NCBI GenBank assembly: GCA_035326705.1
Contig: DAOLES010000005.1
Span: 54,444 to 118,443, forward strand
DNA: 64,000 nt
Direction of reading: 5' to 3'
Source: Oligoflexia bacterium
GTDB lineage: Bacteria; Bdellovibrionota_G; JALEGL01
The notes under the pieces were generated by a model. The model had not been told where the DNA came from. It saw nothing but the letters and a program-made list of their open reading frames with translations, and searched no databases. Positions 38,357-54,404 of the stretch are shown here, piece after piece; the first letter of the stretch is position 1, and every line of letters begins with the position of its first letter. Position numbers and translations under genes: made by a program.

Positions 38357-38779
38357 ATGATCAAGTTTCTGCACAGCATGATTCGGGTGTCTAATCTAGA
38401 AGAATCTTTAGCATTTTATGTAGATGGCTTGGGATTAAAAGAAGTTCGTCGGAAAGAAGTACCGCAAGGTAAATTTACCTTAGTGTTCCTTAAAGCCCCT
38501 GACAGTGATGCAGAAATTGAACTCACCTACAATTGGGATAGCAATGAAGACTATGGCAACGCCAGAAATTTTGGCCATTTGGCTTTCTCAGTGGAAAACA
38601 TCTATGAAACCTGTGTATCCCTGCAAGAGAAAGGCATTGATATTTTGAGACCCCCCAGAGATGGTCACATGGCTTTCATCAAGTCACCGGACAATATATC
38701 TATTGAACTGTTACAAAAAGGCGATCCTCTACCACCCCAAGAACCCTGGGCCAGCATGGAAAACGTCGGTACATGGTAA
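38357..38779 (+). CDS. gloA: Lactoylglutathione lyase (glyoxalase I)
   Basis: [17 protein letters not shown]...LGL, ELTYNWD, GHLAFSV and [14 protein letters not shown] form the canonical GloA metal-binding pattern. Confidence 0.9.
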
Positions 38780-38993: not shown

Positions 38994-39662
38994 ATGAATA
39001 TATTTGCAGACAAAGCTAGTTTGGTTCTTAGACATCTTCTCCGATACCCAGAGAAGCCTTGGGTTATTTCTGAGATTGTGGAAAGTCTTGGGTTAAGCCA
39101 GGGTTTGGTTGCCAAAGTGATCCTGGAGCTAAGACAGCAAGGGTTTCTTAAAGGTGAAGCTCGGGGGCCTAAAGCTTCTTCCAAACTTCGTCACGCCGAA
39201 GAACTTCTTGATCAGTGGACCAAACAGTACCAATTTAACAAAAATCATACGATGGCTTTTTATAGTTCTGACAAAAATATTTTAAAAATCCTTAAAAATA
39301 CTTTGAGCCCATCAAAATCTGTTTCTTATGCCCTCACCTTACATACCGGTGCAAACTTCATGACCCACTATGTTCGTGATCAAAATGTGTATGCCTATTT
39401 ACCTGCAGAGAATTTTGATAATCAAGTTGAAGAGCTACGAAAACAGCTTAACCTCCTTGAACTTAAACAAGGCGGGAATGTTTTTTTCATTAAACCTTGG
39501 TATAGAAATTCTATCTTTTACAATGCACAAAAAATTAAAGGTTATTCAGTTGTGTCAAATTTACAGCTTTACTTAGACTTATTTAATTATCCCGACCGAG
39601 GAAATGAACAAGCTTTGCAACTTAAACGCGTCTTAAAAGAAAAAGGAGTGCCACTTGCCTGA
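38994..39662 (+). CDS. AbiEi-like winged-helix antitoxin/transcriptional regulator (type IV TA-like)
   Basis: N-terminal wHTH (ISEIVESLGLSQGLVAKVILELRQQGFL). The C-terminal SVVSNLQLYLDLFNYPDRGNEQA matches the AbiEi C-domain pattern. There is an 8 nt overlap with the downstream NTase gene. Confidence 0.6.
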   Translation: MNIFADKASLVLRHLLRYPEKPWVISEIVESLGLSQGLVAKVILELRQQGFLKGEARGPKASSKLRHAEELLDQWTKQYQFNKNHTMAFYSSDKNILKILKNTLSPSKSVSYALTLHTGANFMTHYVRDQNVYAYLPAENFDNQVEELRKQLNLLELKQGGNVFFIKPWYRNSIFYNAQKIKGYSVVSNLQLYLDLFNYPDRGNEQALQLKRVLKEKGVPLA

Positions 39663-40422
39663 TGCTTCTTTTCTTCTTTTGCTTCAAACCCTGAAAGATT
39701 TAAAACCATTCTTATCTCATTTGGTTTTGGTGGGTGGATGGGTACCCTATATTTATTCCCAATATGTTTGGAAGCTGAGTCATATACCTAGAGGTACAGC
39801 GGACATCGATTTTGGATTAAAAGACATTACCTACAAAGGAAAAAGTACCATTGCTCATAAACTGAAGCAAAAGCAATATGGAGAACATCACATAAATATG
39901 GGTAAACTACGTCCATATATTCCAGTTGCAAAACACGGGGATGAACGAGCCGATGTTGAATTCATTACATCTGCTAATCCCGAAACATTTAAAAGCTTGG
40001 TTGGCAAAGATATCAAAATCAACCAAATCGAAAATTTTGATCTCCTCCTTGAAAAGCCTTTACGAATGCCCATAGAGGGCTTGAATATCCAGATCCCTCG
40101 CCCGTCTATATTTATTTTCCATAAACTGCTTACATTTGTCGAGCGTCAAGGCCAGTTTAAACGAGAGAAAGACCTTTATTATGCTTATTTCATGTTGCTA
40201 TTTCATTCGGACAATGAACAAGTCAGCCAAGAAATTAAACAGCTCATTCTGAAAAAGCCGCAGGGAAAAACGGTAGAGAAGAATATTAAAAACTATTTTG
40301 ATGACGAATTTGACCAAGGGCCTCGTATTATTGGGCAACAAATCAAGGCTACTTCCATTCAAACCTTTGTTAAAGACGTCCAGCAAGATTCTTTTGAGCG
40401 CTTGCGAAAGCTTTTACCTTAA
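39655..40422 (+). CDS. Nucleotidyltransferase-fold protein (AbiEii / GSU2403-like toxin)
   Basis: LVLVGGWVPYIY...GTADIDFGL is the minimal NTase GG...DxD signature. The gene is translationally coupled to the wHTH gene. Confidence 0.6.
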   Translation: MPDASFLLLLQTLKDLKPFLSHLVLVGGWVPYIYSQYVWKLSHIPRGTADIDFGLKDITYKGKSTIAHKLKQKQYGEHHINMGKLRPYIPVAKHGDERADVEFITSANPETFKSLVGKDIKINQIENFDLLLEKPLRMPIEGLNIQIPRPSIFIFHKLLTFVERQGQFKREKDLYYAYFMLLFHSDNEQVSQEIKQLILKKPQGKTVEKNIKNYFDDEFDQGPRIIGQQIKATSIQTFVKDVQQDSFERLRKLLP

Positions 40423-40436
40423 TCTAAAAACTTATC

Positions 40437-40577
40437 TAATCATGGGACACACTGTGTATTCTTAATAAAAACGAGTTACCTAAATTAGTACACAGTGTGT
40501 CCCTGGATTGGCTCAATTCCCTAAAGTAACCGGGTACTTTTTTCCACTAACACAATTTATTCGGTAGCTGTCCCTGG
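40437..40577 (+). repeat. Boundary repeat, copy A (contains 15 bp perfect inverted repeat)
   Basis: TAATCATGGGACACACTGTGTATTCTTA recurs at 41988-42016, and CCCTAAAGTAACCGGGTACTTTTTTCCAC recurs at 42056-42084. The internal arms GGGACACACTGTGTA (40444-40458) and TACACAGTGTGTCCC (40489-40503) are perfectly complementary. Confidence 0.65.
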
Positions 40578-40579
40578 AA

Positions 40580-40630
40580 CTGCCAAGCCAAGAACCCTGG
40601 GCGAGCATGGAAAATTCCGGATCATGGTAA
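40580..40630 (+). pseudogene. Orphan diverged copy of the gloA 3' end
   Basis: The 51 nt ending in TGGTAA match 38729-38779 at 42 of 51 positions by my count. They read [16 protein letters not shown] versus [16 protein letters not shown] in gloA. Confidence 0.7.
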
Positions 40631-40719: not shown

Positions 40720-41859
40720 CTATTTAGAATTATTTGCTAGCCAATTATCGAGTCGCTGGCTTTCACTGGTCTTAAAGGTGTAATCTTCACCTCTCAAAAA
40801 ATCCCGCAAAAAGTCTTCGTCGCAAGCTTCTAAATCTCCGGTTGAAGCTGAAAAAACGTAGGTTTGATCCTTTAACTTAGTTTCACTAATAAGTTTAGCT
40901 AGAGGTTTAGTATGTAATGATCCTGTCCAAATAAGCAAAGATTTGTTTGGGTAGTCTAGAGCCAACTTTTGTATGTTTGAAAAAATAAAATGTTCCCTCA
41001 TCTCGAACTCCACTTTAATTGTCTCGTCGGATTTGCTACTCTTTTCATTGAACAAATTAACTGGATCCAAAAATTCTAACGTTGATGTAAAATTAAGCGC
41101 TTTTAAAGCCGGAATATTGTTACTCTCTAAGTTATACTTAGCCTCAGAAGCATTTTTAATGTGAGTTGTATAAAAAGAAGTTACCACCTTTTCATTCAAT
41201 GTTTTTAGTTCCTCGAAATAAGTAAGTGCATAGGCTTTAAATTCGTTTGCATCTGTGAGTTCATATATTTTTTCAATGAACTCCATATCCTCTGATCGCG
41301 GACTTTGTGGGCTACTTTTTAATCGCTCTATGAGGTCCGAAGAAATAACTCTAAATTCATCTGTTGAGTCATTATTTAAAATTTTTTCTACAATATTGAC
41401 GATTTCGGGATGGTTTGGACTTTTTGTAAGAAATGTTGATGCAAAGTCCCAAATACGAAATAAATCAATTCGGCTATAGAACGGGCTCGAAATTTGTTCT
41501 AAACCTAGATCAAGCTGGATTGACATATGCTTTAAATATAGAAGGTATTCAATTAAAATATGATCTTCGATATGACGAAGTGTTTCTGTTTCAGCCGAAA
41601 GGACTACGCCTTCAAACCCCAAAATAATTTCCGAATCCTTTTCATTCTTTGAGCTTGAGGAGTTATAGAAACTTTTTAGTTTATGATGCAGGTCTGGACA
41701 GCCTGCGGCAGAATGAATGCCCAAGCTTTGGTTTGTATGGCTGGTACCCCAAAGTACTATTTTTCTTTCAATTGTCTGAGCTTTGGTTTGGCTAAAAGGT
41801 TGCTCACATAACACAGCAATAAAAATATTACATAATACTATTAGCTTAAGTTGTTTCAT
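40720..41859 (-). CDS. Secreted protein, possibly Tiki/TraB/ChaN-like superfamily
   Basis: Signal peptide present. Spaced motifs LWGTSHT, EMREHFIFSN and WTGSLHT resemble the GxxH / RExxM / GxxH pattern of that superfamily. Confidence 0.35.
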   Translation of the reverse strand: MKQLKLIVLCNIFIAVLCEQPFSQTKAQTIERKIVLWGTSHTNQSLGIHSAAGCPDLHHKLKSFYNSSSSKNEKDSEIILGFEGVVLSAETETLRHIEDHILIEYLLYLKHMSIQLDLGLEQISSPFYSRIDLFRIWDFASTFLTKSPNHPEIVNIVEKILNNDSTDEFRVISSDLIERLKSSPQSPRSEDMEFIEKIYELTDANEFKAYALTYFEELKTLNEKVVTSFYTTHIKNASEAKYNLESNNIPALKALNFTSTLEFLDPVNLFNEKSSKSDETIKVEFEMREHFIFSNIQKLALDYPNKSLLIWTGSLHTKPLAKLISETKLKDQTYVFSASTGDLEACDEDFLRDFLRGEDYTFKTSESQRLDNWLANNSK

Positions 41860-41987
41860 TTTTCCCTTATTGTGATAATTTTATGCATGGGCTATCATGA
41901 ACACCATGGTGTGTCAACCACCTACTCAGGATATTTTGACGCACTATTAGCACTACTTAAGACTTTAAAACTCCACTCCTATGTTTC

Positions 41988-42084
41988 TTAATCATGGGAC
42001 ACACTATGTATTCTTATAAGAACTATTTACTTAAACCAGGAATACACCCTATACTCCCCAAAATAACCGAGTACTTTTTTCACA
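41988..42084 (+). repeat. Boundary repeat, copy B (degenerate; overlaps the 3' end of the ATPase gene)
   Basis: It matches copy A at both ends (see 40437-40577). Only the left arm of the inverted repeat is preserved. Confidence 0.55.
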
Positions 42085-43487
42085 AGAATTTTTTCATCTT
42101 CAGGAATTTCTTCCTTTTTAAAATCTCCATCAAATAGGAAAATACTATTTCTCACTTTTCCGCTAGACATCATTGCTGCAAAAGAAACCATACTAGATGT
42201 GCCGCCTGGATATATTTCAATAGATATCCTATCTCTCTTACTATCATTTAGTAACTTTTTTTGAACATAAGTTACTATATATTTTGATAAACTATCCTCC
42301 ACATATATGTACAGTTTTTCTTTATCTTGATAAGTGTACCCTAAATGAAAAGAGCTTTCAGACGCAACCGCAGAGTTAATAATTTGAATTTTATTATCTA
42401 AACCTGGGTTAGATATCAACAGCTTAATTGCACAGTCAGGAAGACCTGTTGCAAAATATGGTGAGTGGGTTGATAATATTACCTGTAATTTTTTTTCTGT
42501 AATTTTTTTTAAAATATATTTTTGCAATTTTATTTGTGCACCAATATGTAACGATGTTTCTGGTTCATCTAATAAAATCAAAGCTCTATTTTTTGCATTT
42601 TCGATTGCGTAAATTAACCGAATAACGCTTGCCTCACCACTACCTGCAAATGCCTCTGAATATTTTTCATCATTTAAATCTTTGTTGATATAAATTGAAA
42701 AACCACCCAAATTATAAAAATCATGTTCTATATAAGTTATATCGGAATATTTAATATCGAGGATATCAGAAGCCACCTGCAACTCTTCTATAGAAAAATT
42801 ATAATGTTCAGAAATTTTTTCTTTTCCATAGTAAGTTTTACTTTTAAGCTTCTTATCTAAAGCATTTTTTAATAACTTTGAACGTTTAAACAAATACCTT
42901 CTTTGCTTAGGGCGACTCCCACCTCCTTTTGAATCGAAATAAAATGCTCTGTCAAATGCACTAATTTCGGATCTAAAGTCTAAATATATTACTTTCTTTT
43001 TTATCGCATTCCACCTAGTTTTTGATCTTCCAGGGGGAATCGGATCACCTTCTTTTATTTCTTGTATAGGTTTCATACCGAAGTCAACCAATGGTCTAGT
43101 TGGCTCCCAATAACTGGAATCGATTAATTTATATTTTGGAGATTGTTTTTTTATCCTTGACTTTGCCACTTCCACTTCTTGACCAGCTTCATCACTAATA
43201 TATTTATACCAATATACAGATCTTTGTTTGATTAAATCTACATAAGACTCAAACCAATACTCTCCAGTTGAGTTACCCTCTGGACAACCATATAACGCGT
43301 GAAGAATTGAACTTTTATTTGTTCCATTTTTGCCAATTAATAAAGTTAAAGGAAATTCAAATATTAATTCCGATTCAGGAACTAAGTTTTTATAAGAACA
43401 AAATTTAATAAATGAAATATAGGGATTATACTCTTTGCCTTTTTGGAACCTATTTTTTATTTCTTCAATTTCATCAAAAGAATTCAT
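42027..43487 (-). CDS. ABC-type (AAA_15/21-like) ATPase with short C-terminal TOPRIM/DUF4435-like region (OLD / PARIS-like)
   Basis: Walker A LIGKNGTNKSSIL, signature-like AGSGEASVI, Walker B ALILLDEPETSLH and H-loop STHSP. These are followed by LYIYVEDSLSK and IFLFDGDF, which resemble the TOPRIM Glu and DxD. The last ~20 codons run into repeat copy B. Confidence 0.6.
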   Translation of the reverse strand: MNSFDEIEEIKNRFQKGKEYNPYISFIKFCSYKNLVPESELIFEFPLTLLIGKNGTNKSSILHALYGCPEGNSTGEYWFESYVDLIKQRSVYWYKYISDEAGQEVEVAKSRIKKQSPKYKLIDSSYWEPTRPLVDFGMKPIQEIKEGDPIPPGRSKTRWNAIKKKVIYLDFRSEISAFDRAFYFDSKGGGSRPKQRRYLFKRSKLLKNALDKKLKSKTYYGKEKISEHYNFSIEELQVASDILDIKYSDITYIEHDFYNLGGFSIYINKDLNDEKYSEAFAGSGEASVIRLIYAIENAKNRALILLDEPETSLHIGAQIKLQKYILKKITEKKLQVILSTHSPYFATGLPDCAIKLLISNPGLDNKIQIINSAVASESSFHLGYTYQDKEKLYIYVEDSLSKYIVTYVQKKLLNDSKRDRISIEIYPGGTSSMVSFAAMMSSGKVRNSIFLFDGDFKKEEIPEDEKILVKKVLGYFGEYRVYSWFK

Positions 43488-43496
43488 AAAAACCTA

Positions 43497-44516
43497 TTAA
43501 ATAATAAAACATTCTGAAATTCTTTCCGCCATCCTAGGAGGCACTGCATTTCCAACTTGCCTAGCACACGATGTAATACTTCCAGAAAAAATAAAATTAT
43601 CAGGAAAAGTTTGTAGCCTCGCAGCTTCGCGGACACTAATAGCCCTGTTTTGTTCTGGATGTCCAAATCGTCCATTAGAGTAGCTCGTACACTTAGTTGT
43701 TAAAGTAGCTGCTAATGCATCCCATTTCATTCTTCCATATACATCTGTATGACCAGAGTAATTTTTATGACAACCATTTTTTAAATGCTCTGGCCAATCT
43801 CTTCTATCTCCACCTTCTGGAGTTAATATAATTCTTTGAATATTTTCTTTTGATAATTTAGAAGATACATGATTTGGTATTTGTTCATGTGTTTCTCCCG
43901 CTTCAATTGGAGGCAAATCTTGAATGAACTCGCGTGTAGTATATTGCCTATGTTTATAATGATTCACTATTGTTTGAAGCGATCTGAGCCTATAAGGTTT
44001 TAAACACCCAATAAGAATAAATCTCTTTCTTTTTTGAGGAACACCTAACTCTGATGCATAAATATTACCTATTTCAAATTTATATCCAAGTTCTTCTAAC
44101 TGAAAAGTAAATTTTTTAAATATACCATTTGACCTACTTATATTCTGTATCCCTGGAACGTTTTCAAGAAAAATATACTCCGGCTTCCAAAAAGAAATAA
44201 ATCTCAGGAACTCCAGTAGAAGTGACTTTCTACTATCATTTTTTTGAGTATGTTTTTTTTGATTACTGAAAGGTTGGCAAGGCGCACAACCGCTAAAAAG
44301 CAGTGGCCCCGTTGACCTCTCAATAATAATTTTAAGCTCTTCTTCTTTAAAATTTCTAATATTTTCTTGAATAAATATAGCTTTGGGAAAATTATTTTTA
44401 TATGTTTGAGCTGAATCTCTATCAAAATCAAGAGCACCAATTATTTTAAAGCCGACATTTTCAAAGCCTAAACTTGTTCCCCCGCATCCACTAAAAAAAT
44501 CAACTACGTTCAACAT
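43497..44516 (-). CDS. dcm: DNA (cytosine-5)-methyltransferase
   Basis: Motif I VVDFFSGCGGTSLGF, motif IV GCAPCQPFS, motif VI ENV, motif VIII QKRKRFILIG, then RLQTFPDNF and GNAVPP. The start is placed at MLNVVDFF. The stop lies 9 nt before the ATPase start. Confidence 0.9.
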   Translation of the reverse strand: MLNVVDFFSGCGGTSLGFENVGFKIIGALDFDRDSAQTYKNNFPKAIFIQENIRNFKEEELKIIIERSTGPLLFSGCAPCQPFSNQKKHTQKNDSRKSLLLEFLRFISFWKPEYIFLENVPGIQNISRSNGIFKKFTFQLEELGYKFEIGNIYASELGVPQKRKRFILIGCLKPYRLRSLQTIVNHYKHRQYTTREFIQDLPPIEAGETHEQIPNHVSSKLSKENIQRIILTPEGGDRRDWPEHLKNGCHKNYSGHTDVYGRMKWDALAATLTTKCTSYSNGRFGHPEQNRAISVREAARLQTFPDNFIFSGSITSCARQVGNAVPPRMAERISECFII

Positions 44517-44620
44517 ATATTTAATAAATAATAGCCCATACCACATTTTATGTAAACGTTAGTTTTCCATCAACAGATCCTTTTTTGTTGCCGACCGCAA
44601 AGGGTGAAAAAATAAAAATT

Positions 44621-44657: not shown

Positions 44658-44689
44658 TTGTTAGCGGGAGCTGGATTTGGCCGATGCCT
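44658..44689 (-). repeat. Degenerate remnant of the tRNA-fMet 3' end (fossil att site)
   Basis: TTGTTAGCGGGAGCTGGATTTGGCCGATGCCT versus TGGTAGCGGGAGCCGGATTTGAACCGACGACCT in the tRNA. Several substitutions and small indels. Confidence 0.5.
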
Positions 44690-45027
44690 TTGGCATCGGC
44701 ATAAGTTACACTAGATCTTTGCTGCGCCTACGGCTTGCTCATCACAAGTGTAGCTTTAAACCAACGAAAGGCTTATTTTAATAACTAAAAACTTTTCTGA
44801 AATTTTGGTTTTGGTAGTTAGTAGTAGCTAAATTTGAACCCAGTCAAAACCGGGTGAATGGTTTGGGCTTGGCCCAAACCCAGCCCGCACATGCACATTC
44901 ATCCAGTTGGAAGCCCATGCATAAAGACCTTCGGCCATGTTGCCGTTAGGCAATATAAAAAAACAGAGAGCCCGAAGGGCGAATAACCGTAATTTGCATG
45001 ATTGATTTTATGGAAAATGATCGGAAT

Positions 45028-45072
45028 TGGTAGCGGGAGCCGGATTTGAACCGACGACCTTCGGGTTATGAG
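45028..45072 (-). repeat. attL-type direct repeat: exact copy of the 3' 45 nt of tRNA-fMet
   Basis: 45028-45072 is identical to 54328-54372 (TGGTAGCGGGAGCCGGATTTGAACCGACGACCTTCGGGTTATGAG). Identity stops in the anticodon loop. Confidence 0.9.
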
Positions 45073-45167
45073 TACGTTTCTCTAATCTTGCCATACTCTA
45101 TGTACTTGAATAGATTATACTTTTCATCTTGTCAAGCTGACCATTCTTGTATAATTTGACTCATGAG

Positions 45168-45186
45168 TGACGCGATAATGACGCAA
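45168..45186 (+). promoter_or_regulatory. Candidate integrase/Xis arm-type site (left)
   Basis: TGACGCGATAATGACGCAA matches TGACGCAATACTGACGCAA at 54241-54259 at 17 of 19 positions. TGACGC is repeated at 11 bp spacing. Confidence 0.4.
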
Positions 45187-45244
45187 AAAATGAACTGAAA
45201 AACATGAAAAGTAAACCCAATTAATAAGACATAAGTTGATAGAG

Positions 45245-48001
45245 ATGAGTATTTTAAGCTGGAACCAAATCAGAGCCAACGCTGCACAATTTTCAGATTC
45301 TTGGAAAGACGCGCACTATGAAAAAGGTGACACACAAACCTTTTATAATGAGTTTTTTGAGGTGTTCGGGCACCGCCGACGCAATGTTGCCTTATATGAA
45401 AAAAAAGTTGATATGGTGGGACGCTCTCATGGTTTCATTGATCTTTTTTGGCCAGGCATGCTGATTGTTGAGCAAAAATCCGCGGGTCGTAATTTAGACT
45501 CCGCTAGCACTCAAGTGGATGACTATATTCTTGCATTAAGTGAACGTGAAAGACCTCGATACCGCCTTATCAGTGATTTCCAAAACTTTGTTTTTACTGA
45601 CCTAGCGACGCGACAAATTTACACTTTCAAATTGGATGAACTTAAAAATAACATTAAACTTTTTGATTTTATTGCAGGTAGAAGGCAGCAAATTTACAAA
45701 GATCAAGATCCAGTAAACATTGATGCCTCTGATAAAATGAGCTCTCTACATAAAGTTTTAGAGGACTCTGGTTATGGTGGCACCGACCTTGAGCGATTGC
45801 TTGTTCGCATCATGTTTTGTTTATTTGCAGACGACACTGGCATATTTGAGCAAGACTCGTTGCTAAACTATATTCGTGACCGTACCCATACTGATGGCAG
45901 TGATCTTGGCAGCAAACTAATTGAACTATTTCAAGTTTTGGATACTCCAAAAGAAAAGCGTCAAAAAATGCTAGATGAAGACTTAGCTAGCTTTCCATAC
46001 GTAAACGGAAAACTATTTAATGGCTCTATCCGTACACCTTCATTTAACAACTCCATGCGAGATGTTCTATTAGACTGCTGTTACTTTAACTGGACAGAGG
46101 TTTCACCGGCATTATTTGGATCTTTATTTCAAACTGTCATCCTACCTGAAAAACAACGCCAAAGCGGCGCACATTATACAAGCGAGAAAAACATACTAAA
46201 AACCATTCAACCTTTATTTATGGAAGAACTGCAAGAGGAATTTAGTAGGTTAAAAAACCTAGGAGGGACACAACGTAGAAGTAAAATAGAACAATTTCAC
46301 ATCTCTTTAAGTAAATTGACGTTTTTAGACCCTGCGTGCGGATGTGGGAATTTTTTGATCTTAGCTTATCGCGAGTTACGTTTATTAGAGCTAGACATAT
46401 TAGACGAGCTATATCCGAGAGACAATAATGGCGATAGGCAAAATTTTTTAGATGTAGATCATTTATCTTTAATTAATGTAGATCAGTTTTATGGCATCGA
46501 AATAAGTGAATTTCCTGTTTATATTGCCCAAACTGCGATGTGGTTAATTGATCACCAAATGAATATGAAACTAGGTGACATGTTTGGGCAAGCCTTTGCC
46601 CGTTTACCACTGCAAAAAACTGCAAACATTTATCACGGCAATGCCCTCACAGTAGATTGGAATGAAGTAATTCCGGCATCAAAATGCTCTTACATTTTTG
46701 GTAATCCACCGTTTATTGGAAAAGCATATCGCAATAATGAACAACAAAGTGAGATGAAAAAAATTTTCAAAAGCACAAAAGGAACATTAGATTTAGATTA
46801 CGTAGTATGTTGGTTTTATATTGCAGCACATTATATTCAAAAAAAAAGTTGTCAAGTTGCTTTTGTTTCTACAAATTCAATTTGTCAAGGTGAGCAAGTA
46901 CCAATCTTTTGGGCTTTAATGATGGAAGAACTCAATATACACATTAATTTTGCTCATCGAACCTTTAAATGGATAATTGATGCTCAAAAAGCAAAAGGTA
47001 TGAATGTTGCTTCTGTTTATGTAGTTATTGTTGGATTTTCAACTATAAATAAAAGTAGAAAGAAAATTTTTGATTATGAAACAATTTCTTCTGACCCCCA
47101 CGAACTAAATGTAAAGAAAATTAACCCCTATTTATTAAATGCTGATACCTTTTTTATAAAAAACAGAAAAAACCATTTCCAAAAAAATTGCGTACCGCAG
47201 TTATCATTTGGGAGTATGCCTAATGATGGAGGTTTTTTAATTTTAAACGATAATGAAGCGCGTAGTTTTATACAAAAAGAACCTAAATCTAAAAACTTCA
47301 TTAAACCTTTTCTTGGTTCTAGAGAGTTTATTAATAATCTTCCCAGGTATTGTTTATGGTTAAAAAACTGTAGCCCATCAAACCTTAAGTCAATGCCTAT
47401 AGTAATTGAGAGAGTTGAGGCAGTACGTAAACAAAGATTAAAAAGCACTCGACCACCAACAAATAAATTAGCTCAATTCCCATGGTTATTTGGCGAGATA
47501 AGACAGCCAAATCAACGTTACATCGCTATTCCAGAAGTCTCATCTCAAAGCAGGGACTATATTCCAATTGGTTTTTTGGATAAAGACACTATAGCAAGTA
47601 ATAAACTTTATACTATCTCTAACGGCAACTTATATCATTTCGGGATAGTCACATCTAAAATGCATATGATTTGGATGAAAACTGTTGGCGGCCGATTAAA
47701 AAACGATTATCAGTATTCTAATGGTATTGTGTACAATAATTTTTCTTGGCCAGAAGCGACCGACATGCAAAAAGAGGCCATTGCTAAAAAAGCTCAAGCT
47801 ATCTTAGATGCTAGAAGCAATCACAAAGAGTCATCACTGGCTGATTTATATAATCCAAATCTCATGCCTGTTGACTTGAGAAAAGCTCACAATGCCTTAG
47901 ATAAAGAAGTGGACAAAACTTATCGCAAAGAACCATTTAACAGTGAACTTGAGCGCATACAGTTTCTATTTGAGCGTTATCAAAAACTGACTCAACTTTA
48001 A
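45245..48001 (+). CDS. MmeI-family Type IIL (IIG) restriction endonuclease / N6-adenine methyltransferase fusion
   Basis: N-terminal LSWNQIR...FYNEFFEVFG...FIDLFWPGMLIVEQKS (PD-ExK nuclease as in MmeI). Methylase motif I LDPACGCGNFL and motif IV GNPPFIG are present. The 918 aa size is close to my recollection of about 919 aa for MmeI. Confidence 0.8.
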   Translation: MSILSWNQIRANAAQFSDSWKDAHYEKGDTQTFYNEFFEVFGHRRRNVALYEKKVDMVGRSHGFIDLFWPGMLIVEQKSAGRNLDSASTQVDDYILALSERERPRYRLISDFQNFVFTDLATRQIYTFKLDELKNNIKLFDFIAGRRQQIYKDQDPVNIDASDKMSSLHKVLEDSGYGGTDLERLLVRIMFCLFADDTGIFEQDSLLNYIRDRTHTDGSDLGSKLIELFQVLDTPKEKRQKMLDEDLASFPYVNGKLFNGSIRTPSFNNSMRDVLLDCCYFNWTEVSPALFGSLFQTVILPEKQRQSGAHYTSEKNILKTIQPLFMEELQEEFSRLKNLGGTQRRSKIEQFHISLSKLTFLDPACGCGNFLILAYRELRLLELDILDELYPRDNNGDRQNFLDVDHLSLINVDQFYGIEISEFPVYIAQTAMWLIDHQMNMKLGDMFGQAFARLPLQKTANIYHGNALTVDWNEVIPASKCSYIFGNPPFIGKAYRNNEQQSEMKKIFKSTKGTLDLDYVVCWFYIAAHYIQKKSCQVAFVSTNSICQGEQVPIFWALMMEELNIHINFAHRTFKWIIDAQKAKGMNVASVYVVIVGFSTINKSRKKIFDYETISSDPHELNVKKINPYLLNADTFFIKNRKNHFQKNCVPQLSFGSMPNDGGFLILNDNEARSFIQKEPKSKNFIKPFLGSREFINNLPRYCLWLKNCSPSNLKSMPIVIERVEAVRKQRLKSTRPPTNKLAQFPWLFGEIRQPNQRYIAIPEVSSQSRDYIPIGFLDKDTIASNKLYTISNGNLYHFGIVTSKMHMIWMKTVGGRLKNDYQYSNGIVYNNFSWPEATDMQKEAIAKKAQAILDARSNHKESSLADLYNPNLMPVDLRKAHNALDKEVDKTYRKEPFNSELERIQFLFERYQKLTQL

Positions 48002-48182
48002 CTATTGAATAACTTAAAGCACATTGTATATTTATAGCCCTACCCTGAAAATAAACTCTAAGAAATTATATAGAGCGTACTTATTGTGAAATAGATAATA
48101 ACTTGATTTTTCAATCACCAAAGAAAAGACACTCTGCATTATAACGCTTGATTAACCTTATTGTGTTTGATAACAGACTATA

Positions 48183-48992
48183 ATGTCATTAAGTAATGAA
48201 AGCACAATAATTCGTAAACTCACCGTTGATTACCATATAGTTTCTAAATACCACGCTTCTTGCCACGGAATTATTGGACCATTAAATACCCATCAAATTA
48301 AACTCATTTCAGAAGCGAGAAAAACACTAACTGATAGGAAAAAGATTATATTCAACGATGATAGTATAAGATCGACGTGCTTTGAAGGTTACAGTGAGCA
48401 AAAGTATCTGTTTTTACTTTGCCCTGGTGTACAGACTTTTGTTGATCGAACAGACCTTAACAGTTATTCAATTTTTAAACTTATAATTCAGTTTTGCTCT
48501 ACAAAAGCAGATTTAAACTTCCGATCTAGAGTAAAACCAAAAACTTTAGACCATTTGGATCGATTTGAAGCCGATCTCAAAGAGTTAGAAGAGTATCATT
48601 ATAACATTAAAAATAAGATGGAGGTGATTAATCAACTAAAAAACACTCTTCATGGCATTAATAATAATTTAAAAACTCGTGGAAGAGGTCCAAATTGGGG
48701 AGAGGAAAAGTGGCTATTTCAAGAACTATCTGCGATACCTCTCCTATATAAAAATAATAAATCTAAACTAAAAACTAAAGAAATTGCTTTGATAATGGTT
48801 GCATATGGTCTTTGGCTTCCTTCAAGTGAAAACTACTCTTTAAAAGACATTATAGAAAGCCAAAAAGACAACATTTATAATGCAACCAAAAGAAGATCAA
48901 AAGCAATAGCTTCAGTAGTCAATGAATCTATCCATCCATACATTTGGGAAGCACATAAAATTTATCGTACTCAAATAACTAAAAACTCTTAG
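48183..48992 (+). CDS. Hypothetical protein (island cargo)
   Basis: 269 aa ORF downstream of the Type IIL gene. No recognisable motif. Confidence 0.4.
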   Translation: MSLSNESTIIRKLTVDYHIVSKYHASCHGIIGPLNTHQIKLISEARKTLTDRKKIIFNDDSIRSTCFEGYSEQKYLFLLCPGVQTFVDRTDLNSYSIFKLIIQFCSTKADLNFRSRVKPKTLDHLDRFEADLKELEEYHYNIKNKMEVINQLKNTLHGINNNLKTRGRGPNWGEEKWLFQELSAIPLLYKNNKSKLKTKEIALIMVAYGLWLPSSENYSLKDIIESQKDNIYNATKRRSKAIASVVNESIHPYIWEAHKIYRTQITKNS

Positions 48993-49037
48993 TTCAAGTC
49001 CATTTTAATCGCACTATAAGATTGATAACACATAATC

Positions 49038-49256
49038 ATGATTGAAAATTCAGATTATGATCATCAAGATAACCAACAAGTTAACTACTTTGATTACGAA
49101 AAACTTAGTCAATTTTTGAGTGTCAAAAAATCAACATTATATGCATGGGTTTCACGTAATGAAATTCCATTCATACGTATAAGCAGTAGATGCGTTAGGT
49201 TTGATTTTAATCAAATTAAAGCATGGCTAAAAAACAAACAAAAGTCCTGTAACTAA
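49038..49256 (+). CDS. Excisionase/AlpA-like helix-turn-helix DNA-binding protein
   Basis: LSQFLSVKKSTLYAWVSRNEIPFIRISSRCVRFDFNQIKAWL matches the MerR-type HTH_17 / Xis pattern. Confidence 0.65.
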   Translation: MIENSDYDHQDNQQVNYFDYEKLSQFLSVKKSTLYAWVSRNEIPFIRISSRCVRFDFNQIKAWLKNKQKSCN

Positions 49257-49268
49257 ATTTTCAATTCT

Positions 49269-49317
49269 GTAAACCTACTTATTTTATCCTTGGGAAAGGT
49301 ATAATGAGTAGGTTTAC
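49269..49317 (+). terminator. Hairpin after the Xis-like gene, with a TATAAT box in its loop
   Basis: GTAAACCTACTTATT / AATGAGTAGGTTTAC forms 15 bp including one G-U. No U-tract follows. A perfect TATAAT sits at 49300-49305. Confidence 0.4.
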
Positions 49318-49809
49318 GGTTCACTTGCCACAAAAGTGACGCTACTTTCCAAGTCATAGCGATAAATGGCTGGACTGATATAATTAACTGCGACTAGGTT
49401 AAAGATTTATCAGTAATTTGGGTTTTCTGCCTGACTTGTGGTGACGGATAAAACTGTATCAATCCCCTATCTACTAAACAAGTTGTTTTTGACCCAAATA
49501 CCCAAAATAGTGTTTCTATGAAGATAATTAGGTAAAAATCTAGGATTAATAGTCCGAGGTGTGCTTTTACAGTTTACTTCAACTTAATCGGCAGTTTAGA
49601 ACGTGGGGTTAGCCGTCCACAGGACTTTTTACTTAATGTTGTTGTAAACACACAGCATTGCTCAATGATGTCTTTTTATTCGAGCATTTGTTTGTTAGTT
49701 TTTTACGCTTTTTTTAGGTTTTGTAACAACTACTGTTAAAAATTTTTAAATAATTAGCCGTAAAGAAAAGGGGGGAGTTGTATCTAAAATTAAATATATA
49801 GAGGAAAAA

Positions 49810-50235
49810 ATGAGAAAAAAATACCCTAATAAAATAAAGTATCATGCCATGCAATTGTGGGCAGATGGCTTTACCTATTCACAAATAACTAAAATTGTTG
49901 GTATTTCCAGTTGGAGAACTGTTGAAAACTGGAAAAAAGCAAAAACCCCATGTTGTTGGGACAAGTATACCGAAGAAGTACGTAAAAAGCGCGTTGATGA
50001 AATTAAAAATGAATCCTTTGATTGTTATAAAAAAACAATAACAAAGCAGCACAAAGTACTTAATAAACTACTCAATCAATCCTACGATGAGCTACTTCAG
50101 CGATTAGAGAACGATGAAATTAATACTGATGATGTAATCAAGCTATTCATTTGGTCTATAAAAGCTCAGAGAAGCCTTTATTTAGACCCTCAGGAAGCTC
50201 TTGAATTATTTAAAAAAGAAATCAAAGTATTATAA
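49810..50235 (+). CDS. HTH-domain protein (terminase-small-subunit-like / regulator)
   Basis: YHAMQLWADGFTYSQITKIVGISSWRTVENW is an N-terminal HTH, followed by a helical tail. An A/G-rich RBS (GAGGAAAAAA) lies upstream. Confidence 0.4.
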   Translation: MRKKYPNKIKYHAMQLWADGFTYSQITKIVGISSWRTVENWKKAKTPCCWDKYTEEVRKKRVDEIKNESFDCYKKTITKQHKVLNKLLNQSYDELLQRLENDEINTDDVIKLFIWSIKAQRSLYLDPQEALELFKKEIKVL

Positions 50236-51192
50236 TCAGCTGTTTTTTTTTGGTGTTTGAAACTGCTCTAATAGTGCCAAAGTGTAGTCAATAAAACCAC
50301 AAATATGAAGCGCTTGCCTATCAGAAACTTGCAACAAATTATGATGGCTATCATTTCTAATCATAGCAAACAAACCAGATAGCAAATCACGAATACCCTC
50401 GTTTTGCTCGTCTTTTTTTATTGGTATTAATTTTGGTTTTTGGTTTGAAAAAACATTGTTTATTAGCTTTATACCGCTTAGATTAGAATTGCTTGGAAGC
50501 TTAGCCTTCTCCTTAATTCTATTTTCTAAAACGGTAGCGGATTCTCTTATTACAGTATCAAATAGATCTTCTCCATGAGTGTTTTTTTCTTCGATTCTGA
50601 GTTTAAAGATCCCCTCGCATCTTTTCTTTAACTCCTGATCGGTAATCTCCATCAGTCCCATGTATGGGGCAAAAGTTTGGTTTAAATCTTCAGTTATATT
50701 TTGCTTTTCAAGCGTAAATTTTTTCTGTGCTACGTCACTTGCTTTTGTTAAATCAATCAAATAGCTGGGAACTTTAAGACTATTTAAAAGCCCACTTTCT
50801 GCTAAATCACGTTTTGTTTGAATAACTTGATCAATCTTTTCTACAGTTGCTTTTAATAATTCAGGATTAGCTTGAATAAGCTCAATTTTTTTCCTTTCTA
50901 ACTCTCTTATTTGTGCATAAGCACCTGCTTTTATAATTCTCAATGACCAAAAGCTAATACCACGTGCAAAATCATCTTCATCTTGTTTTTTTTTATAATA
51001 CTCAATTATTCTTTCAACATGTTCATGTAACTCTGATTTATTTTCTATTTCAAAAGACTTTAATACCTCTTGATCATTATCCAGTCTTTGTTTAATTAAC
51101 TCCAGGCCCGGCAGAAATAAATCGATAATACTTTTTCTTAAAATAACGTGTGGAACTGTTTCATCATCATGAGGTTGTTTTTTATCTTTCAT
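50236..51192 (-). CDS. TIGR02391 (Hypoth_ymh) domain protein with unknown N-terminal helical domain
   Basis: The C-terminal DLFDTVIRESATVLENRIKEKA...GIKLINNVF...GLFAMIRNDSHHN...ALHICGFIDYTLALLE fits the TIGR02391 consensus (RNxxaH). Confidence 0.55.
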   Translation of the reverse strand: MKDKKQPHDDETVPHVILRKSIIDLFLPGLELIKQRLDNDQEVLKSFEIENKSELHEHVERIIEYYKKKQDEDDFARGISFWSLRIIKAGAYAQIRELERKKIELIQANPELLKATVEKIDQVIQTKRDLAESGLLNSLKVPSYLIDLTKASDVAQKKFTLEKQNITEDLNQTFAPYMGLMEITDQELKKRCEGIFKLRIEEKNTHGEDLFDTVIRESATVLENRIKEKAKLPSNSNLSGIKLINNVFSNQKPKLIPIKKDEQNEGIRDLLSGLFAMIRNDSHHNLLQVSDRQALHICGFIDYTLALLEQFQTPKKNS

Positions 51193-51212
51193 GCTATTTA
51201 AAGTACTATGAA

Positions 51213-51875
51213 TTAAAAACTTTTACCAAGATACTTAATTTTATTGTCTGCTCCAAGCTTATTTGCCTCATTTAAAGCTTTGTTTTTATCATTTTCATTT
51301 GGTGAAATAAACCAGCACCATCCCCCATAGACTATTCCAGTTATATAGCATGCAATTTTATCGCTTTTTGCAATCGGTGTTGTAAACTCAATGATTTCTG
51401 TCAAATCTTGTGAGTAGTAAATAGCATAGGCTTTATTTTCTGACGATTTAAAAGCTATTCTATACTTTACTAACTCTTTAGGGTTAACAAGCTTAGAAGT
51501 AATCAACTCATCATCTGAGTAAAAAGAAACCTCTGCTACTGTGTTCGGTGCTATGGGTTGATCTGGAGACTGCATTGCAGAATGAATTTTTTTAGTTGTA
51601 CCTGATACCAATCTATAAGATTGCCCTTCAAACTCTGCTACTGAGTCACTAAATGAAACATAAACTACATCACTTGATCTATTTTTAATCCAAAAATGAT
51701 TTAGCCTTGTTATATCTTGTGAGATTTCAATTGACTCAGGGATTATATTTTTTGGTCTAATGTCATTTTCTGGCCTATGGATTACTCCTTTCCATCTGTA
51801 AGTGCTACAACTTGTTGTAGTTAAAACTAATAAAACTATAACTAACTGGTTTTTTAAAATTTGTAATTTTTGCAT
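51213..51875 (-). CDS. Hypothetical lipoprotein (island cargo)
   Basis: Lipobox LTTTSC. It lies 20 nt upstream of the TIGR02391 gene on the same strand. Confidence 0.45.
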   Translation of the reverse strand: MQKLQILKNQLVIVLLVLTTTSCSTYRWKGVIHRPENDIRPKNIIPESIEISQDITRLNHFWIKNRSSDVVYVSFSDSVAEFEGQSYRLVSGTTKKIHSAMQSPDQPIAPNTVAEVSFYSDDELITSKLVNPKELVKYRIAFKSSENKAYAIYYSQDLTEIIEFTTPIAKSDKIACYITGIVYGGWCWFISPNENDKNKALNEANKLGADNKIKYLGKSF

Positions 51876-51967
51876 AAAAGAGCTCCTAAACTAATAAACG
51901 ACCCTTCTTTAATTATACCTTCTTATAGGAAGAGAATCAAAACATCTTATCCCTATTATTGAAAATA

Positions 51968-52198
51968 ATGAAAAAGGCAGAATTTTTAAAAAAACTGGGA
52001 AAGCACATAGCAAAAATAAGAAAATCAAAAGGTTACAGTCAGGATAGGTTATACTTAGAAGCTGGGTTTTCACGAGGAACTGTCTCAAAAATTGAAAATG
52101 GACTAGTAAACCCTCAGATTTTTACATTGTATAAAATTGCAAAGACTATTAACGTTTCTGTTTCAACTTTGATAAGTTTCTCTGAAAAAGACTTATAG
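51968..52198 (+). CDS. XRE-family helix-turn-helix transcriptional regulator
   Basis: IRKSKGYSQDRLYLEAGFSRGTVSKIENGLVNPQIFTLYKIAKTINVSVSTL is a canonical HTH_3. It is divergent from the lipoprotein/TIGR02391 operon. Confidence 0.8.
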   Translation: MKKAEFLKKLGKHIAKIRKSKGYSQDRLYLEAGFSRGTVSKIENGLVNPQIFTLYKIAKTINVSVSTLISFSEKDL

Positions 52199-52208
52199 TA
52201 GCTAATAA

Positions 52209-52622
52209 CTATTTTTCATTATTTGTTTTACTAATCCATTGCGTATGCTCTCTCGAAACAAGCATTTCAACTCTCTCAGCAAGTTGTTTTTGTGTATCAC
52301 TATCTCCGTACGGACCAGCTTTTGCTAAAAATAGATACTTTTCTTTTCTAAGAGCTTCACAAGTGGCACGATACATTATCCAATTATGTTGATCTTGATT
52401 GAGGGATGTCCAAGCTTCCAAGAAAGAAATTAAAACTCCTAATACTCCAATAACTAAAAGATCAGCTTTTATACCAGCTAACAATGGAATTAAACTCGAA
52501 AAAATTATGATAAAAACTTTAGACAGCTTAAATCGTTTTTGATGAGCTTGGCTTTTTTTATCATACCATTCAATTTGCTCCTCTAACCTGCACAGTGTTA
52601 CATTTTCTGAATGATCTTTCAT
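52209..52622 (-). CDS. DUF4231 / SLATT-family two-TM protein
   Basis: LEEQIEWYDKKSQAHQKRFK, then two TM helices (VFIIIFSSLIPLLAGI and LVIGVLGVLISFLEAW), then WIMYRATCEALRKEKYLF...VSREHTQW. This is the DUF4231 layout. Confidence 0.7.
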   Translation of the reverse strand: MKDHSENVTLCRLEEQIEWYDKKSQAHQKRFKLSKVFIIIFSSLIPLLAGIKADLLVIGVLGVLISFLEAWTSLNQDQHNWIMYRATCEALRKEKYLFLAKAGPYGDSDTQKQLAERVEMLVSREHTQWISKTNNEK

Positions 52623-52625
52623 TTT

Positions 52626-53036
52626 TTAACCTATTAACTTTTCTATACTCCATGGGTCCCAAGAATAAAACTTACTATTCTTAGGAAACTTAGTAGGAAG
52701 TTTAGCAGATTCTACTCCTTTTAGCGCCATTCCAATTACCTTCTTTTCTAATTCAATAGCTTTTTCAATCTCCCAGTTTACCCACTGACTCTTGTACGTA
52801 TCATTACCTATTAGTACAATAACAGCAGAAGACCTTTTAATTTTATCTATGATTTTTATTTTTAAGTATATTGAGTCCGTACTATTAATTGGTTTTTTTA
52901 TAGATTCATCATAAAACTCTAAGGGAAATTTCGGACTTTTTGCAAGTAACCTTAAACCATTTACTTGACTTTCATCTTCATACATAAAACTCAAAAAAAC
53001 CCTTTTTTTCATTGCTAACCTAATTTTATCAAACAA
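52626..53036 (-). CDS. TIR-like domain protein (DUF1863 / ThsB-like)
   Basis: KRVFLSFMYEDESQ...SAVIVLIGNDTYKSQWVNWEIEKAIELEKKVIGMAL matches the MTH538/ThsB-type TIR-like pattern. It lies 28 nt after the integrase stop and 3 nt before the SLATT start. Confidence 0.7.
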   Translation of the reverse strand: MFDKIRLAMKKRVFLSFMYEDESQVNGLRLLAKSPKFPLEFYDESIKKPINSTDSIYLKIKIIDKIKRSSAVIVLIGNDTYKSQWVNWEIEKAIELEKKVIGMALKGVESAKLPTKFPKNSKFYSWDPWSIEKLIG

Positions 53037-53064
53037 AAGTACTTATAGCCCGTTAAAATTATGT

Positions 53065-54156
53065 TTATTTCTTATTTAAACTTATAACGGGATTTTTACT
53101 CTTATGTATACTTTTTCCAAACCTATCGTAATCTCCATCAAATGCTTTTACATCCAAATGAGCGTATCTTTCCGTCATTTTAACAGTCGAATGACCTAAA
53201 AGATCCTTTAATTTGTATATGTCACCCCCCTTCATCATCCAATGACTTGCGAAAGTATGTCTTAAATCATGAAATCTAATTCTTTCTAAACCAGCTCTTC
53301 TTATGCAACGTTGAAAAGTTTCTTGAAAAATACGTGATGACTCAATTAACATGTTTCCATAGGCGTTTGGGAATACTAAAGGAAGAGGATTTTGTAGTTT
53401 CCACTCTTTTAAAATGGACTGTAAGCAGTTCAAAATAAGTACATGTCTTGTTTTACCTGATTTAGTTGTTGTACTATAACTCTTTGATATATGGATTTTT
53501 GGATTTATCCCTATTAATTCAACATCTTGCCACTTTAATGCAGCAAGCTCACCTGCTCTCATTCCCGTATATACAGCTGTTGCATAAAGAACATATGGTA
53601 CAGGAGTATTTTCTTGCTTAGCAGATCGTAAGAGCCTATCAATTTCGTTTTGTGTTTTTAAATACAAGAATGACTTCTGAGCTATTTTAAGTTTCTTAAT
53701 TTTAGGCTTGTCATCAATCCACTTTAAGTCAATGGCCATGTTCAGCATTGCAATCAGAAGTGTTAAATGGTTGTTTACTGTTTTTGCGCTTGCCTTATTT
53801 AAAGTAATGCTTGTAAACCTATCTACTATGGTTAACGTTATTTGAGAAAGTGTTAATGTTCCAAAAAAAGGCATAAGATGTGCATTAAGGATACTTTGGT
53901 CATCTTTTGGATTTTTCTTTTTAGACGCTCTATGCATCATCCAATAATCGGCCAATTCCACAAAAGTACGTTCCATTTTTGGTCGAACATACAAGCCAGC
54001 TTTGATTTGGTCCACTTCAAGCTGATTCTTAAGTAATGCTTTGCGTGCGGTATCATAATTTTTAAAGGATTGCCCTCGCCTTTTACCATTTTCATCCACC
54101 CAGCGGATGTGCCACTTATTATTTCGTTTAATTGGTTTTGCCATGTCTTGCCTCAC
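53065..54156 (-). CDS. int: Tyrosine-type site-specific integrase
   Basis: N-terminal SAM-like arm/core binding region. The catalytic region has TGMRAGEL (Arg) and RFHDLRHTFASHWMMKGGDIYKLKDLLGHSTVKMTERYAHL (HxxR...Y). Confidence 0.9.
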   Translation of the reverse strand: MRQDMAKPIKRNNKWHIRWVDENGKRRGQSFKNYDTARKALLKNQLEVDQIKAGLYVRPKMERTFVELADYWMMHRASKKKNPKDDQSILNAHLMPFFGTLTLSQITLTIVDRFTSITLNKASAKTVNNHLTLLIAMLNMAIDLKWIDDKPKIKKLKIAQKSFLYLKTQNEIDRLLRSAKQENTPVPYVLYATAVYTGMRAGELAALKWQDVELIGINPKIHISKSYSTTTKSGKTRHVLILNCLQSILKEWKLQNPLPLVFPNAYGNMLIESSRIFQETFQRCIRRAGLERIRFHDLRHTFASHWMMKGGDIYKLKDLLGHSTVKMTERYAHLDVKAFDGDYDRFGKSIHKSKNPVISLNKK

Positions 54157-54240
54157 TAGTTACAACTTATTTGGCAAGATAAGAATGGACGTAAATGACC
54201 TATTTTAATACTATTATGTCCATGTTCCAGATACTACGAA

Positions 54241-54259
54241 TGACGCAATACTGACGCAA
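54241..54259 (+). promoter_or_regulatory. Candidate integrase/Xis arm-type site (right)
   Basis: TGACGCAATACTGACGCAA lies 69 bp inside the right att core. See the partner at 45168-45186. Confidence 0.4.
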
Positions 54260-54327
54260 GCATTTATAGTGCTATGAACGCCGAAAGGTATTTTTGCTAC
54301 AACTGTTTGAATTAATTATTAGAAATT

Positions 54328-54404
<77 letters not shown>

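Follow-up and report, generated by a model that had tools for sequence, protein, structure and literature searches.

We analysed a 64,000-nt stretch of contig DAOLES010000005.1 (assembly GCA_035326705.1, Oligoflexia bacterium; hereafter the window) that contains a gene for a Dcm-type C5-cytosine DNA methyltransferase (Dcm) followed by a gene for an ATP-binding cassette (ABC) ATPase with a Toprim-like C-terminal region. We propose that this locus represents, in decayed form, a conserved restriction-modification (R-M)-like module of two genes that was acquired horizontally beside a tRNA-Met integration hot spot, a reading to which we assign a probability of roughly 0.6. A preliminary description of the window, made from the sequence, had suggested that the ATPase-Toprim protein is the restriction partner of the methyltransferase. 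Linkage to Dcm and an OLD-like fold, both found across the protein family, speak for that suggestion; the copy in the window is truncated, and for this copy the suggestion fails.

Linkage of the ATPase and methyltransferase genes

We scanned one genome per GTDB species with a sequence pattern and thereby recovered 80 loci that encode relatives of the ATPase protein (33-52% identity). Open reading frames were called at each locus, neighbouring genes were clustered, and Dcm was sought by tblastn with the protein from the window; 76 of the loci have a complete ATPase gene. The preliminary description had called for a survey of such pairs, and had reasoned that its proposal would be refuted if ATPase homologues were never found beside methyltransferases. 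Instead, the pairing is recurrent, with Dcm directly adjacent to the ATPase gene in 58 of the 76 loci and within 8 kb in 73. The adjacent Dcm gene is on the same strand in 57 loci (22 upstream, 32 downstream and 3 overlapping), at distances of -25 nt to about 130 nt and often with overlapping stop and start codons, and on the opposite strand in one. A single gene separates the two in 11 loci, and 2.5-6.3 kb in 4. Dcm is missing from three loci, two of which are at contig ends, and L066 is the only locus at which the ATPase gene is intact and the ~4 kb to each side of it lack Dcm. A dozen or more phyla are represented among the hosts, for example Pseudomonadota, Actinomycetota, Bacteroidota, Spirochaetota, Planctomycetota, Fibrobacterota, Acidobacteriota, Bacillota, Myxococcota, Bdellovibrionota and Patescibacteria. 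We obtained a similar picture from 70 viral contigs of IMG/VR, an independent set with many prophage calls from isolate genomes: Dcm is adjacent in 58.

Pairwise identities among the ATPase proteins are correlated with those among their Dcm partners (r = 0.66), and none of 2000 permutations gave a value as high. Either gene may come first, and the order is mostly constant within ATPase clades. From the adjacency, the co-variation and the clade-consistent order, we conclude that the two genes travel and evolve as a unit. Collections of plasmid and phage records gave one distant plasmid match, for which no methylase is listed, and no phage match. Entries for Dcm and a glyoxalase in clusters at 90% identity, which at first looked like a second strain, proved to be the same genes called from other start codons.

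Some loci have further components. A GHKL ATPase of ~550 aa, in which HATPase_c_3 is fused to Hypoth_Ymh, is encoded by an intervening or following gene in 10 loci, and a gene for a Vsr mismatch endonuclease is present in 11. Loci extended by the GHKL gene, often followed by vsr, include L014, L029, L040, L047, L059, L070, L077, L078 and L081; these are possibly a three- or four-component version of the module. In R-M settings, cytosine methylases are known to be accompanied by GHKL ATPases and by Vsr (PMC2292703 treats the GHKL/MORC theme).

The Dcm gene of the window appears intact. As the preliminary description had stated, it encodes a complete C5-cytosine methyltransferase, and it ends 9 nt before the start of the ATPase gene, with both genes co-directional on the minus strand. 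The reading frame has 349 codons from the first ATG; the true start is likely M11 (position 44516), which gives the 339-aa form of the NCBI entry. The product matches PF00145 at 2.6e-68 (model positions 2-320 of 324) in a Pfam scan and TIGR00675 at 1.8e-51 in an NCBIfam scan, and its translation includes FSGCGG, PCQ, ENV, QxRxR, RExARLQxFPD and GNAVPP, such that no conserved motif is missing. Full-length identity to the Dcm proteins that other genomes encode beside ATPase homologues is 34-62%. By sequence, the solved structures that the Dcm of the window matches best are catalytic domains of eukaryotic DNMT1 (1.5e-34); M.HaeIII and M.HhaI come after these.

An OLD-like protein family and its truncated member

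The ATPase protein of the window has 486 aa and matches AAA_15 (1.1e-19) and AAA_21 (1.1e-14) in a Pfam scan. Both sets of motifs listed in the preliminary description are present: the Walker A, signature, Walker B and H-loop motifs of an ABC/AAA_15-type ATPase, and, near the C-terminus, YVED (E397 D398) and FDGD (D453 G454 D455), with 56 residues between the Glu and the DxD. All are invariant in alignments with homologues, including 77 of 77 full-length relatives. The best match among PADLOC profiles is HEC-04 (8.9e-35, profile positions 156-387 of 494), followed by AriA (3e-19) and the retron effector ATPase-Toprim_I-B (2.9e-16). When the family alignment was searched as a profile against solved structures, the best match was the ATPase of TsOLD (6p74; 2.4e-14), and for OLD, AriA and PtuA alike the match was confined to the ATPase part. 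An NCBIfam scan of the window protein yielded no OLD family.

We selected one full-length relative, P0011 (594 aa), as a reference, and modelled it with AlphaFold2 from an alignment of 62 sequences. The model has a mean pLDDT score of 91.9, and its best matches in the PDB are full-length TsOLD from Thermus scotoductus (6p74; 8.8e-15) and the Gabija protein GajA. A separate model of the C-terminal 229 residues (pLDDT 91.6) has as its top eight PDB matches only C-terminal regions of OLD-family proteins (XccOLD 6njx, BpOLD 6nk8, TsOLD, GajA and retron Eco8), the best being XccOLD at 4e-4 with a probability of 0.99. Full-length relatives match HEC-04 at up to 3.4e-38 over profile positions 148-406 of 494, and one of them, P0026, aligns with positions 21-402 of the 443 in the retron I-B ATPase-Toprim profile. 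When 1.84 billion representatives were searched with a profile of the C-terminal region, only 448 clusters at 50% identity matched (E <= 1e-10); wherever the protein is full-length, it has ~600 aa and the region is its C-terminal part. The ATPase part of the family carries a distinct, highly conserved, Trp-rich insert. Because Pfam is silent on the C-terminal region, the Toprim assignment comes from the fold search and the PADLOC profiles. Judged by these matches and models, the Dcm-linked ATPase family forms a branch of its own among the OLD-type ATPase-Toprim proteins, compact and divergent, and strictly speaking belongs to none of HEC-04, Gabija and PARIS.

The window protein is an incomplete member of this family. 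Among the 120 best cluster representatives, 116 are full-length relatives of 588-636 aa; of the remaining four, two are short at the N-terminus and two at the C-terminus, namely the window protein and P0094 (463 aa). In alignments, family homology of the window protein stops at L468/V469, and a repeat, R2, begins at the third base of codon 469 (position 42081). The preliminary description had placed the last ~20 codons within a repeat element; R2 indeed holds the last 17 codons and the stop codon. R2 and a second copy, R1, are direct copies of ~100 nt with ~80% identity; they differ by a 14-nt indel, through which R2 lacks one 15-nt hairpin arm. A 14-nt core of the repeat occurs three times in the window, against 0.16 expected, and an exact-pattern scan of JGI metagenome contigs for the repeat gave no match. 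Between R1 and R2 lie a gene for a 379-aa protein of secreted appearance and a leftover of a glyoxalase gene's 3' end.

We searched the whole 64-kb window by tblastn with the last 150 residues of the homologues, and found no trace of the missing ~125 residues. The absence of a C-terminal remnant indicates a deletion rather than a simple insertion. The 486-aa product is identical on five contigs from different assemblies, which indicates that the deletion is fixed and not an assembly artefact. Mapped on the P0011 model, the window protein stops seven residues into helix 3 of the Toprim domain, and lacks strand 4 and all of the C-terminal helices. Also lost are E516 and K536 (P0011 numbering), two residues that do not vary among the 77 full-length relatives. 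Full-length relatives thus have a complete four-strand Toprim core, a later acidic residue and a Lys/Arg, and the window protein does not. In OLD proteins, metal-B ligands follow strand 4 (S478/E480 in Ts, T506/E508 in Bp and D541/E543 in P2), and a catalytic Lys/Arg is provided by K562 in Bp, R487 in Ts and K550 in P2; mutating the metal-B or the Lys/Arg residues cripples cleavage and abolishes the toxicity of P2 Old (PMC7049728). Since a core strand of the Toprim fold has been lost, a working nuclease is very unlikely to be made from the 486-aa product. Very probably, then, the nuclease of the window is inactive and its methylase orphaned. The preliminary description had anticipated this outcome in a caveat, which the length of the relatives and the cut at codon 469 bear out; it had also said that its proposal would fall if full-length homologues exposed the copy as an inactive truncation, and at this locus the alignment does so.

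Genomic setting of the pair

The coordinates of the genes, motifs and repeats discussed here are given in the table. The G+C content of the Dcm-ATPase pair is 28-36%, compared with 36-41% in its flanks; together with remnants of tRNA-Met attachment (att) sites alongside, this low G+C content indicates that the pair is of foreign origin. A 9.3-kb integrase island (45027-54404) is bounded by perfect 46-nt repeats. The pair is outside this island, directly on its flank. Between Dcm and the perfect att copy, an 18-nt segment (44662-44679) matches the 3' part of the tRNA-Met gene at 17 of 18 positions (E = 0.016). This segment, weak evidence on its own, may have been an att site, now decayed, of an integration that took place earlier at this hot spot, and the pair may be the leftover of an earlier island whose distal end has eroded.

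Features of the window (positions in nt from the first letter of the 64,000-nt stretch)
Feature	Position	Strand	Remarks
C5-cytosine DNA methyltransferase, Dcm-type	43497..44546	minus	intact-looking; PF00145, TIGR00675
OLD-like ABC ATPase-Toprim gene, 3'-truncated, 486 aa	42027..43487	minus	AAA_15, AAA_21, HEC-04, ATPase-Toprim_I-B
ABC ATPase core motifs, all intact	42462..43334	minus	invariant in homologue alignments
Walker A, G52-S60	43308-43334	minus	invariant columns
Signature GSGE, G282-E285	42633-42647	minus	invariant columns
Walker B and D-loop, D307-H314	42546-42581	minus	invariant columns
H-loop, H341-S342	42462-42473	minus	invariant columns
Toprim domain remnant, aa ~370-468	42082..42380	minus	mapped on AlphaFold2 models of P0011 through alignments
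Toprim strand 1, E397 D398	42294-42299	minus	kept in remnant
Toprim strand 2, G428 G429	within 42082..42380	minus	kept in remnant
Toprim strand 3, D453-G-D455	42123-42131	minus	kept in remnant
Foreign frame tail, K470-K486 and stop	42027..42081	minus	from R2; junction 42081/42082
Repeat R, copy 2 (R2)	41987..42081	plus	blastn-short and MAFFT against 40435-40544
Repeat R, copy 1 (R1)	40435..40544	plus	15-nt inverted arms GGGACACACTGTGTA and TACACAGTGTGTCCC
Distal att copy, tRNA-Met 3' part	45027..45072		perfect 46-nt direct repeat of 54327-54372
MmeI-type IIG enzyme, complete	45236-48001		island; all five MmeI Pfam domains
Unknown 269-aa protein	48183-48992		island
HTH_17 excisionase-like gene	49038-49256		island
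Hypoth_Ymh protein	50236-51192	minus	island
SLATT gene	52209-52622	minus	island; next to TIR gene
ThsB-like TIR gene	52626-53036	minus	island
Tyrosine integrase	53065-54156	minus	island
tRNA-Met	54328-54404	minus	bears the other copy of the att repeat
379-aa gene, signal-peptide-like start	40720-41859	minus	weak DUF5694 match
AbiEi_2 antitoxin-like gene	38994-39662
NTP_transf_8 nucleotidyltransferase	39655-40422		overlaps AbiEi_2 gene

The preliminary description had noted that no classical restriction gene adjoins the pair. This is true of the immediate neighbours, although an MmeI-type IIG enzyme, which is self-contained, is encoded 690 nt upstream of Dcm, inside the separate island. We considered Dcm as a partner of this enzyme and rejected the idea, since the enzyme carries its own N6 methylase domain and sits within the att-bounded island. 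On the other side of the pair, the AbiEi_2 and NTP_transf_8 genes lie between 51-nt direct repeats (38729-38779 and 40580-40630, 82% identical) that duplicate the 3' end of the glyoxalase gene (38357-38779). These two genes look like a small cassette of toxin-antitoxin type that was inserted in the end of the glyoxalase gene and whose integrase is gone. All of this stretch is pieced together from defence cassettes and scars. A scan for promoters and terminators did no better than on shuffled sequence. A repeat finder also reported 51-nt direct repeats at 24671-24721 and 27520-27570 (73% identity, 2.8 kb apart), which may be due to chance.

Proposed mechanism, alternatives and known systems

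The intact module, as we envisage it, would consist of a C5 methyltransferase and a ~600-aa OLD-type protein in which an ABC ATPase is followed by a Toprim nuclease domain and then by a helical bundle. Host DNA would be marked by the methyltransferase at a site that is seemingly conserved across the family; the ATPase-Toprim protein would engage DNA through ATP binding or hydrolysis and would cut unmarked DNA, at a putative two-metal site formed by the strand-1 Glu, the DxD, the later invariant Glu and the invariant Lys. At the locus in the window, a rearrangement with its junction at the end of the ~100-nt repeat has taken away the sequence past codon 469. Helix 3 is mostly gone, strand 4 and the C-terminal helices are missing, as are the two invariant residues (Glu and Lys), and the ATPase half and the metal-A residues are kept. 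The nuclease is almost certainly inactive, with the methyltransferase persisting as an orphan. When R-M systems decay, loss of the nuclease first is usual and harmless; loss of the methylase first would not be. We favour the R-M reading because the linkage is near-obligate, translationally coupled and found in either gene order, the two proteins co-vary, an intact ATPase gene lacks a Dcm within ~4 kb of it at only one locus, and in the window the nuclease has decayed and the methylase is intact. Gene linkage and family resemblance give slightly better than even odds, in our estimate, that the Dcm-linked family is an R-M-like system with an OLD-type nuclease. More tentatively, and at somewhat less than even odds, the ~600-aa proteins and their partners could form a distinct, unnamed class of ATP-dependent R-M system, in which an OLD-type Toprim enzyme restricts, C5 methylation holds it in check, and the target is conserved.

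Several observations weigh against an R-M role. Structural resemblance to OLD is loose, with template modelling (TM) scores of only 0.28-0.39 between the C-terminal model and OLD structures. At E <= 10, a Pfam scan of residues 370-486 of the window protein and 365-594 of a full-length relative matched none of Toprim, OLD-like_TOPRIM and DUF4435, so that the comparison with Toprim_OLD and DUF4435 models recommended in the preliminary description came out negative; its view of the tail as Toprim-like is upheld by the fold search of the relatives and by the partial HEC-04 and retron I-B matches, and not by the Pfam models. The equivalence of E516 and K536 to the metal-B Glu and catalytic Lys of OLD is suggested only by their order in the chain and their invariance. 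Likewise, we infer DNA cutting, and protection by methylation, for every member of the family. HEC-04/IbfA, P2 Old, PARIS and retron Eco8, the characterised systems most like it, are methylase-free, infection-triggered and of abortive type, and some Toprim effectors of this group cut tRNA rather than DNA. Finally, the target-recognition region of Dcm is as conserved as the catalytic core across 63 partner genes from many phyla. The specificities of Type II R-M families normally diversify, and such conservation is therefore unusual; it suggests, from sequence comparison, one common target motif for the partner Dcm genes.

One alternative we regard as unlikely, yet weightier than any other: that the ATPase-Toprim protein is a suicide effector triggered by infection, cutting DNA or tRNA in the manner of P2 Old, PARIS, HEC-04/IbfA or PrrC. 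Dcm would then be no simple protective modification, but either a hitch-hiker without a role in the system or a component under watch, the effector being triggered, for example, when an anti-methylase or DNA mimic of a phage blocks it. The copy in the window would be an inactivated remnant all the same. The best profile matches (HEC-04, AriA and the retron I-B effector) are indeed to single-gene or Abi-type proteins. HEC-04 and IbfA defend without a methylase; ibfA is a plasmid gene homologous to HEC-04, and its phenotype is abortive (PMC12111858). A 2026 preprint describes P2 Old as a tRNase, PARIS AriB acts on tRNA, and a conserved recognition region suits a fixed protein-protein partnership better than it suits diversifying specificity. 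However, known guards such as PrrC watch over a complete R-M enzyme, and a lone methylase offers no defence to guard. Moreover, linkage in 73 of 76 loci, translational coupling and interchangeable gene order are the classic signature of a toxin-like nuclease with its protective methylase; an intact ATPase gene without Dcm in the ~4 kb around it on both sides is found once only, as expected if the nuclease is harmful in the absence of methylation; and in the window it is the nuclease that has decayed and the methylase that is intact.

The truncated protein might also be functional: with its ATPase alone it could bind DNA or regulate, or it could counter incoming full-length copies as an immunity or dominant-negative factor; the pair would then be a shortened working variant. 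Its ATPase half is complete with all invariant residues, the frame is open for 486 codons, the identical allele occurs in five assemblies, and P0094 is a second C-terminally short relative. We nevertheless judge this highly improbable: with only two C-terminally short proteins among the 120 best relatives, there is no conserved isoform; the cut falls inside a Toprim helix, and the fragment that remains, three strands with a tail of 17 foreign residues, probably misfolds; and a junction at the end of a repeat is the mark of an accident. That the genes are adjacent by chance, or that the short gene is an assembly or sequencing artefact, we consider negligible. Orphan Dcm genes are frequent in defence islands, and nothing else favours this idea; the adjacency itself, which recurs across many phyla (58 of the 76 genome loci; 58 of the 70 viral contigs), the co-variation of ATPase and Dcm, and the occurrence of the 486-aa product on five independent contigs all contradict it.

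Among known systems, class 1 OLD proteins (P2 Old and TsOLD) give the best matches in the PDB in both sequence and fold. The distance from the strand-1 Glu to the DxD is 54-55 residues in OLD and 56 in the window protein, and in both groups a later Glu and a Lys/Arg would finish the active site. Class 1 OLD genes stand alone, whereas the Dcm-linked family is tied to a C5 methyltransferase; furthermore, its C-terminal region is too divergent for the Toprim/OLD models of Pfam and NCBIfam, and the copy in the window lacks the second half of the Toprim domain. HEC-04/IbfA proteins likewise fuse ATPase and Toprim, with the same 56-residue spacing (E319 to D375 in HEC-04). They are methylase-free single genes of ~500-520 aa, compared with ~600 aa for the Dcm-linked family, and the HEC-04 profile is matched significantly but only over positions ~150-400 of 494, leaving the N-terminal 150 and the C-terminal ~100 unmatched. 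The Walker A lysine and the E319/D375/D377 metal site of HEC-04 are required for phage defence (Payne et al. 2024, bioRxiv 10.1101/2024.01.29.577857). GajA also combines an ABC ATPase with a Toprim domain and with a C-terminal helical domain, which supplies part of the active site. It is described as a sequence-specific, nucleotide-regulated DNA nicking enzyme (PMC8136825), and hence is a precedent for an OLD-type enzyme with a site preference.

The partner gene sets the Dcm-linked family apart. The partner of GajA is the helicase GajB, in place of which the family has a methyltransferase; we found no UvrD-like GajB partner in the window, where the ATPase gene is flanked by Dcm and the gene for the secreted-looking 379-aa protein, and no helicase cluster recurs among the 80 loci. 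PARIS employs an ATPase of the same broad clade, AriA, with AriB as a separate protein, whereas in the Dcm-linked family the Toprim domain is fused to the ATPase; a Pfam search of the C-terminal region of the ATPase protein (E <= 10) gave no DUF4435 match, and there is no separate DUF4435 protein. Thus, the view of the preliminary description that the locus is neither Gabija nor two-gene PARIS stands. The ATPase-Toprim profile of the retron Eco8 (type I-B) effector spans nearly the full length of P0026; we detected no reverse transcriptase among the open reading frames that flank the pair in the window, a non-coding retron RNA not being searched for. Unlike PARIS and retrons, the family is coupled to Dcm. 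In this respect it resembles Type II R-M systems with C5 methylases, in which methylase and nuclease genes are tightly linked, often overlapping and in either order, and which likewise show horizontal transfer, prophage carriage, an occasional vsr gene and decay to an orphan methylase. It differs from them in that the nuclease would be an ATP-binding, OLD-type Toprim protein rather than a PD-(D/E)xK, HNH, GIY-YIG or PLD enzyme, in that the Dcm recognition region is conserved family-wide, and in that methylation-sensitive cleavage is a putative property. Linkage of a predicted nuclease to the methylase is very strong across the family, but this nuclease is of an unconventional type and is truncated in the window.

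In the literature, OLD proteins fall into class 1 (single genes), class 2 (Gabija), class 3 (retrons) and class 4 (PARIS), and the review consulted mentions no methylase-linked class (PMC10568477). The full-text literature that we searched, which did not extend to REBASE or Krishnan et al. 2020, contains no description of a pairing of OLD/Toprim proteins with Dcm. The Dcm-OLD pair is a widespread and apparently unnamed R-M-like module. In the genome studied here, Dcm is best annotated as an orphan methylase in a defence-island graveyard, and not as part of a working defence. For the family, the implications are broader. OLD-family nucleases are known from Gabija, retrons, PARIS and P2, and the means by which they discriminate self from non-self are still debated. 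If our reading is correct, a methylase-coupled branch of OLD proteins would distinguish self by epigenetic marking, and an ATP-dependent Toprim enzyme would join the few nuclease folds that are used for restriction.

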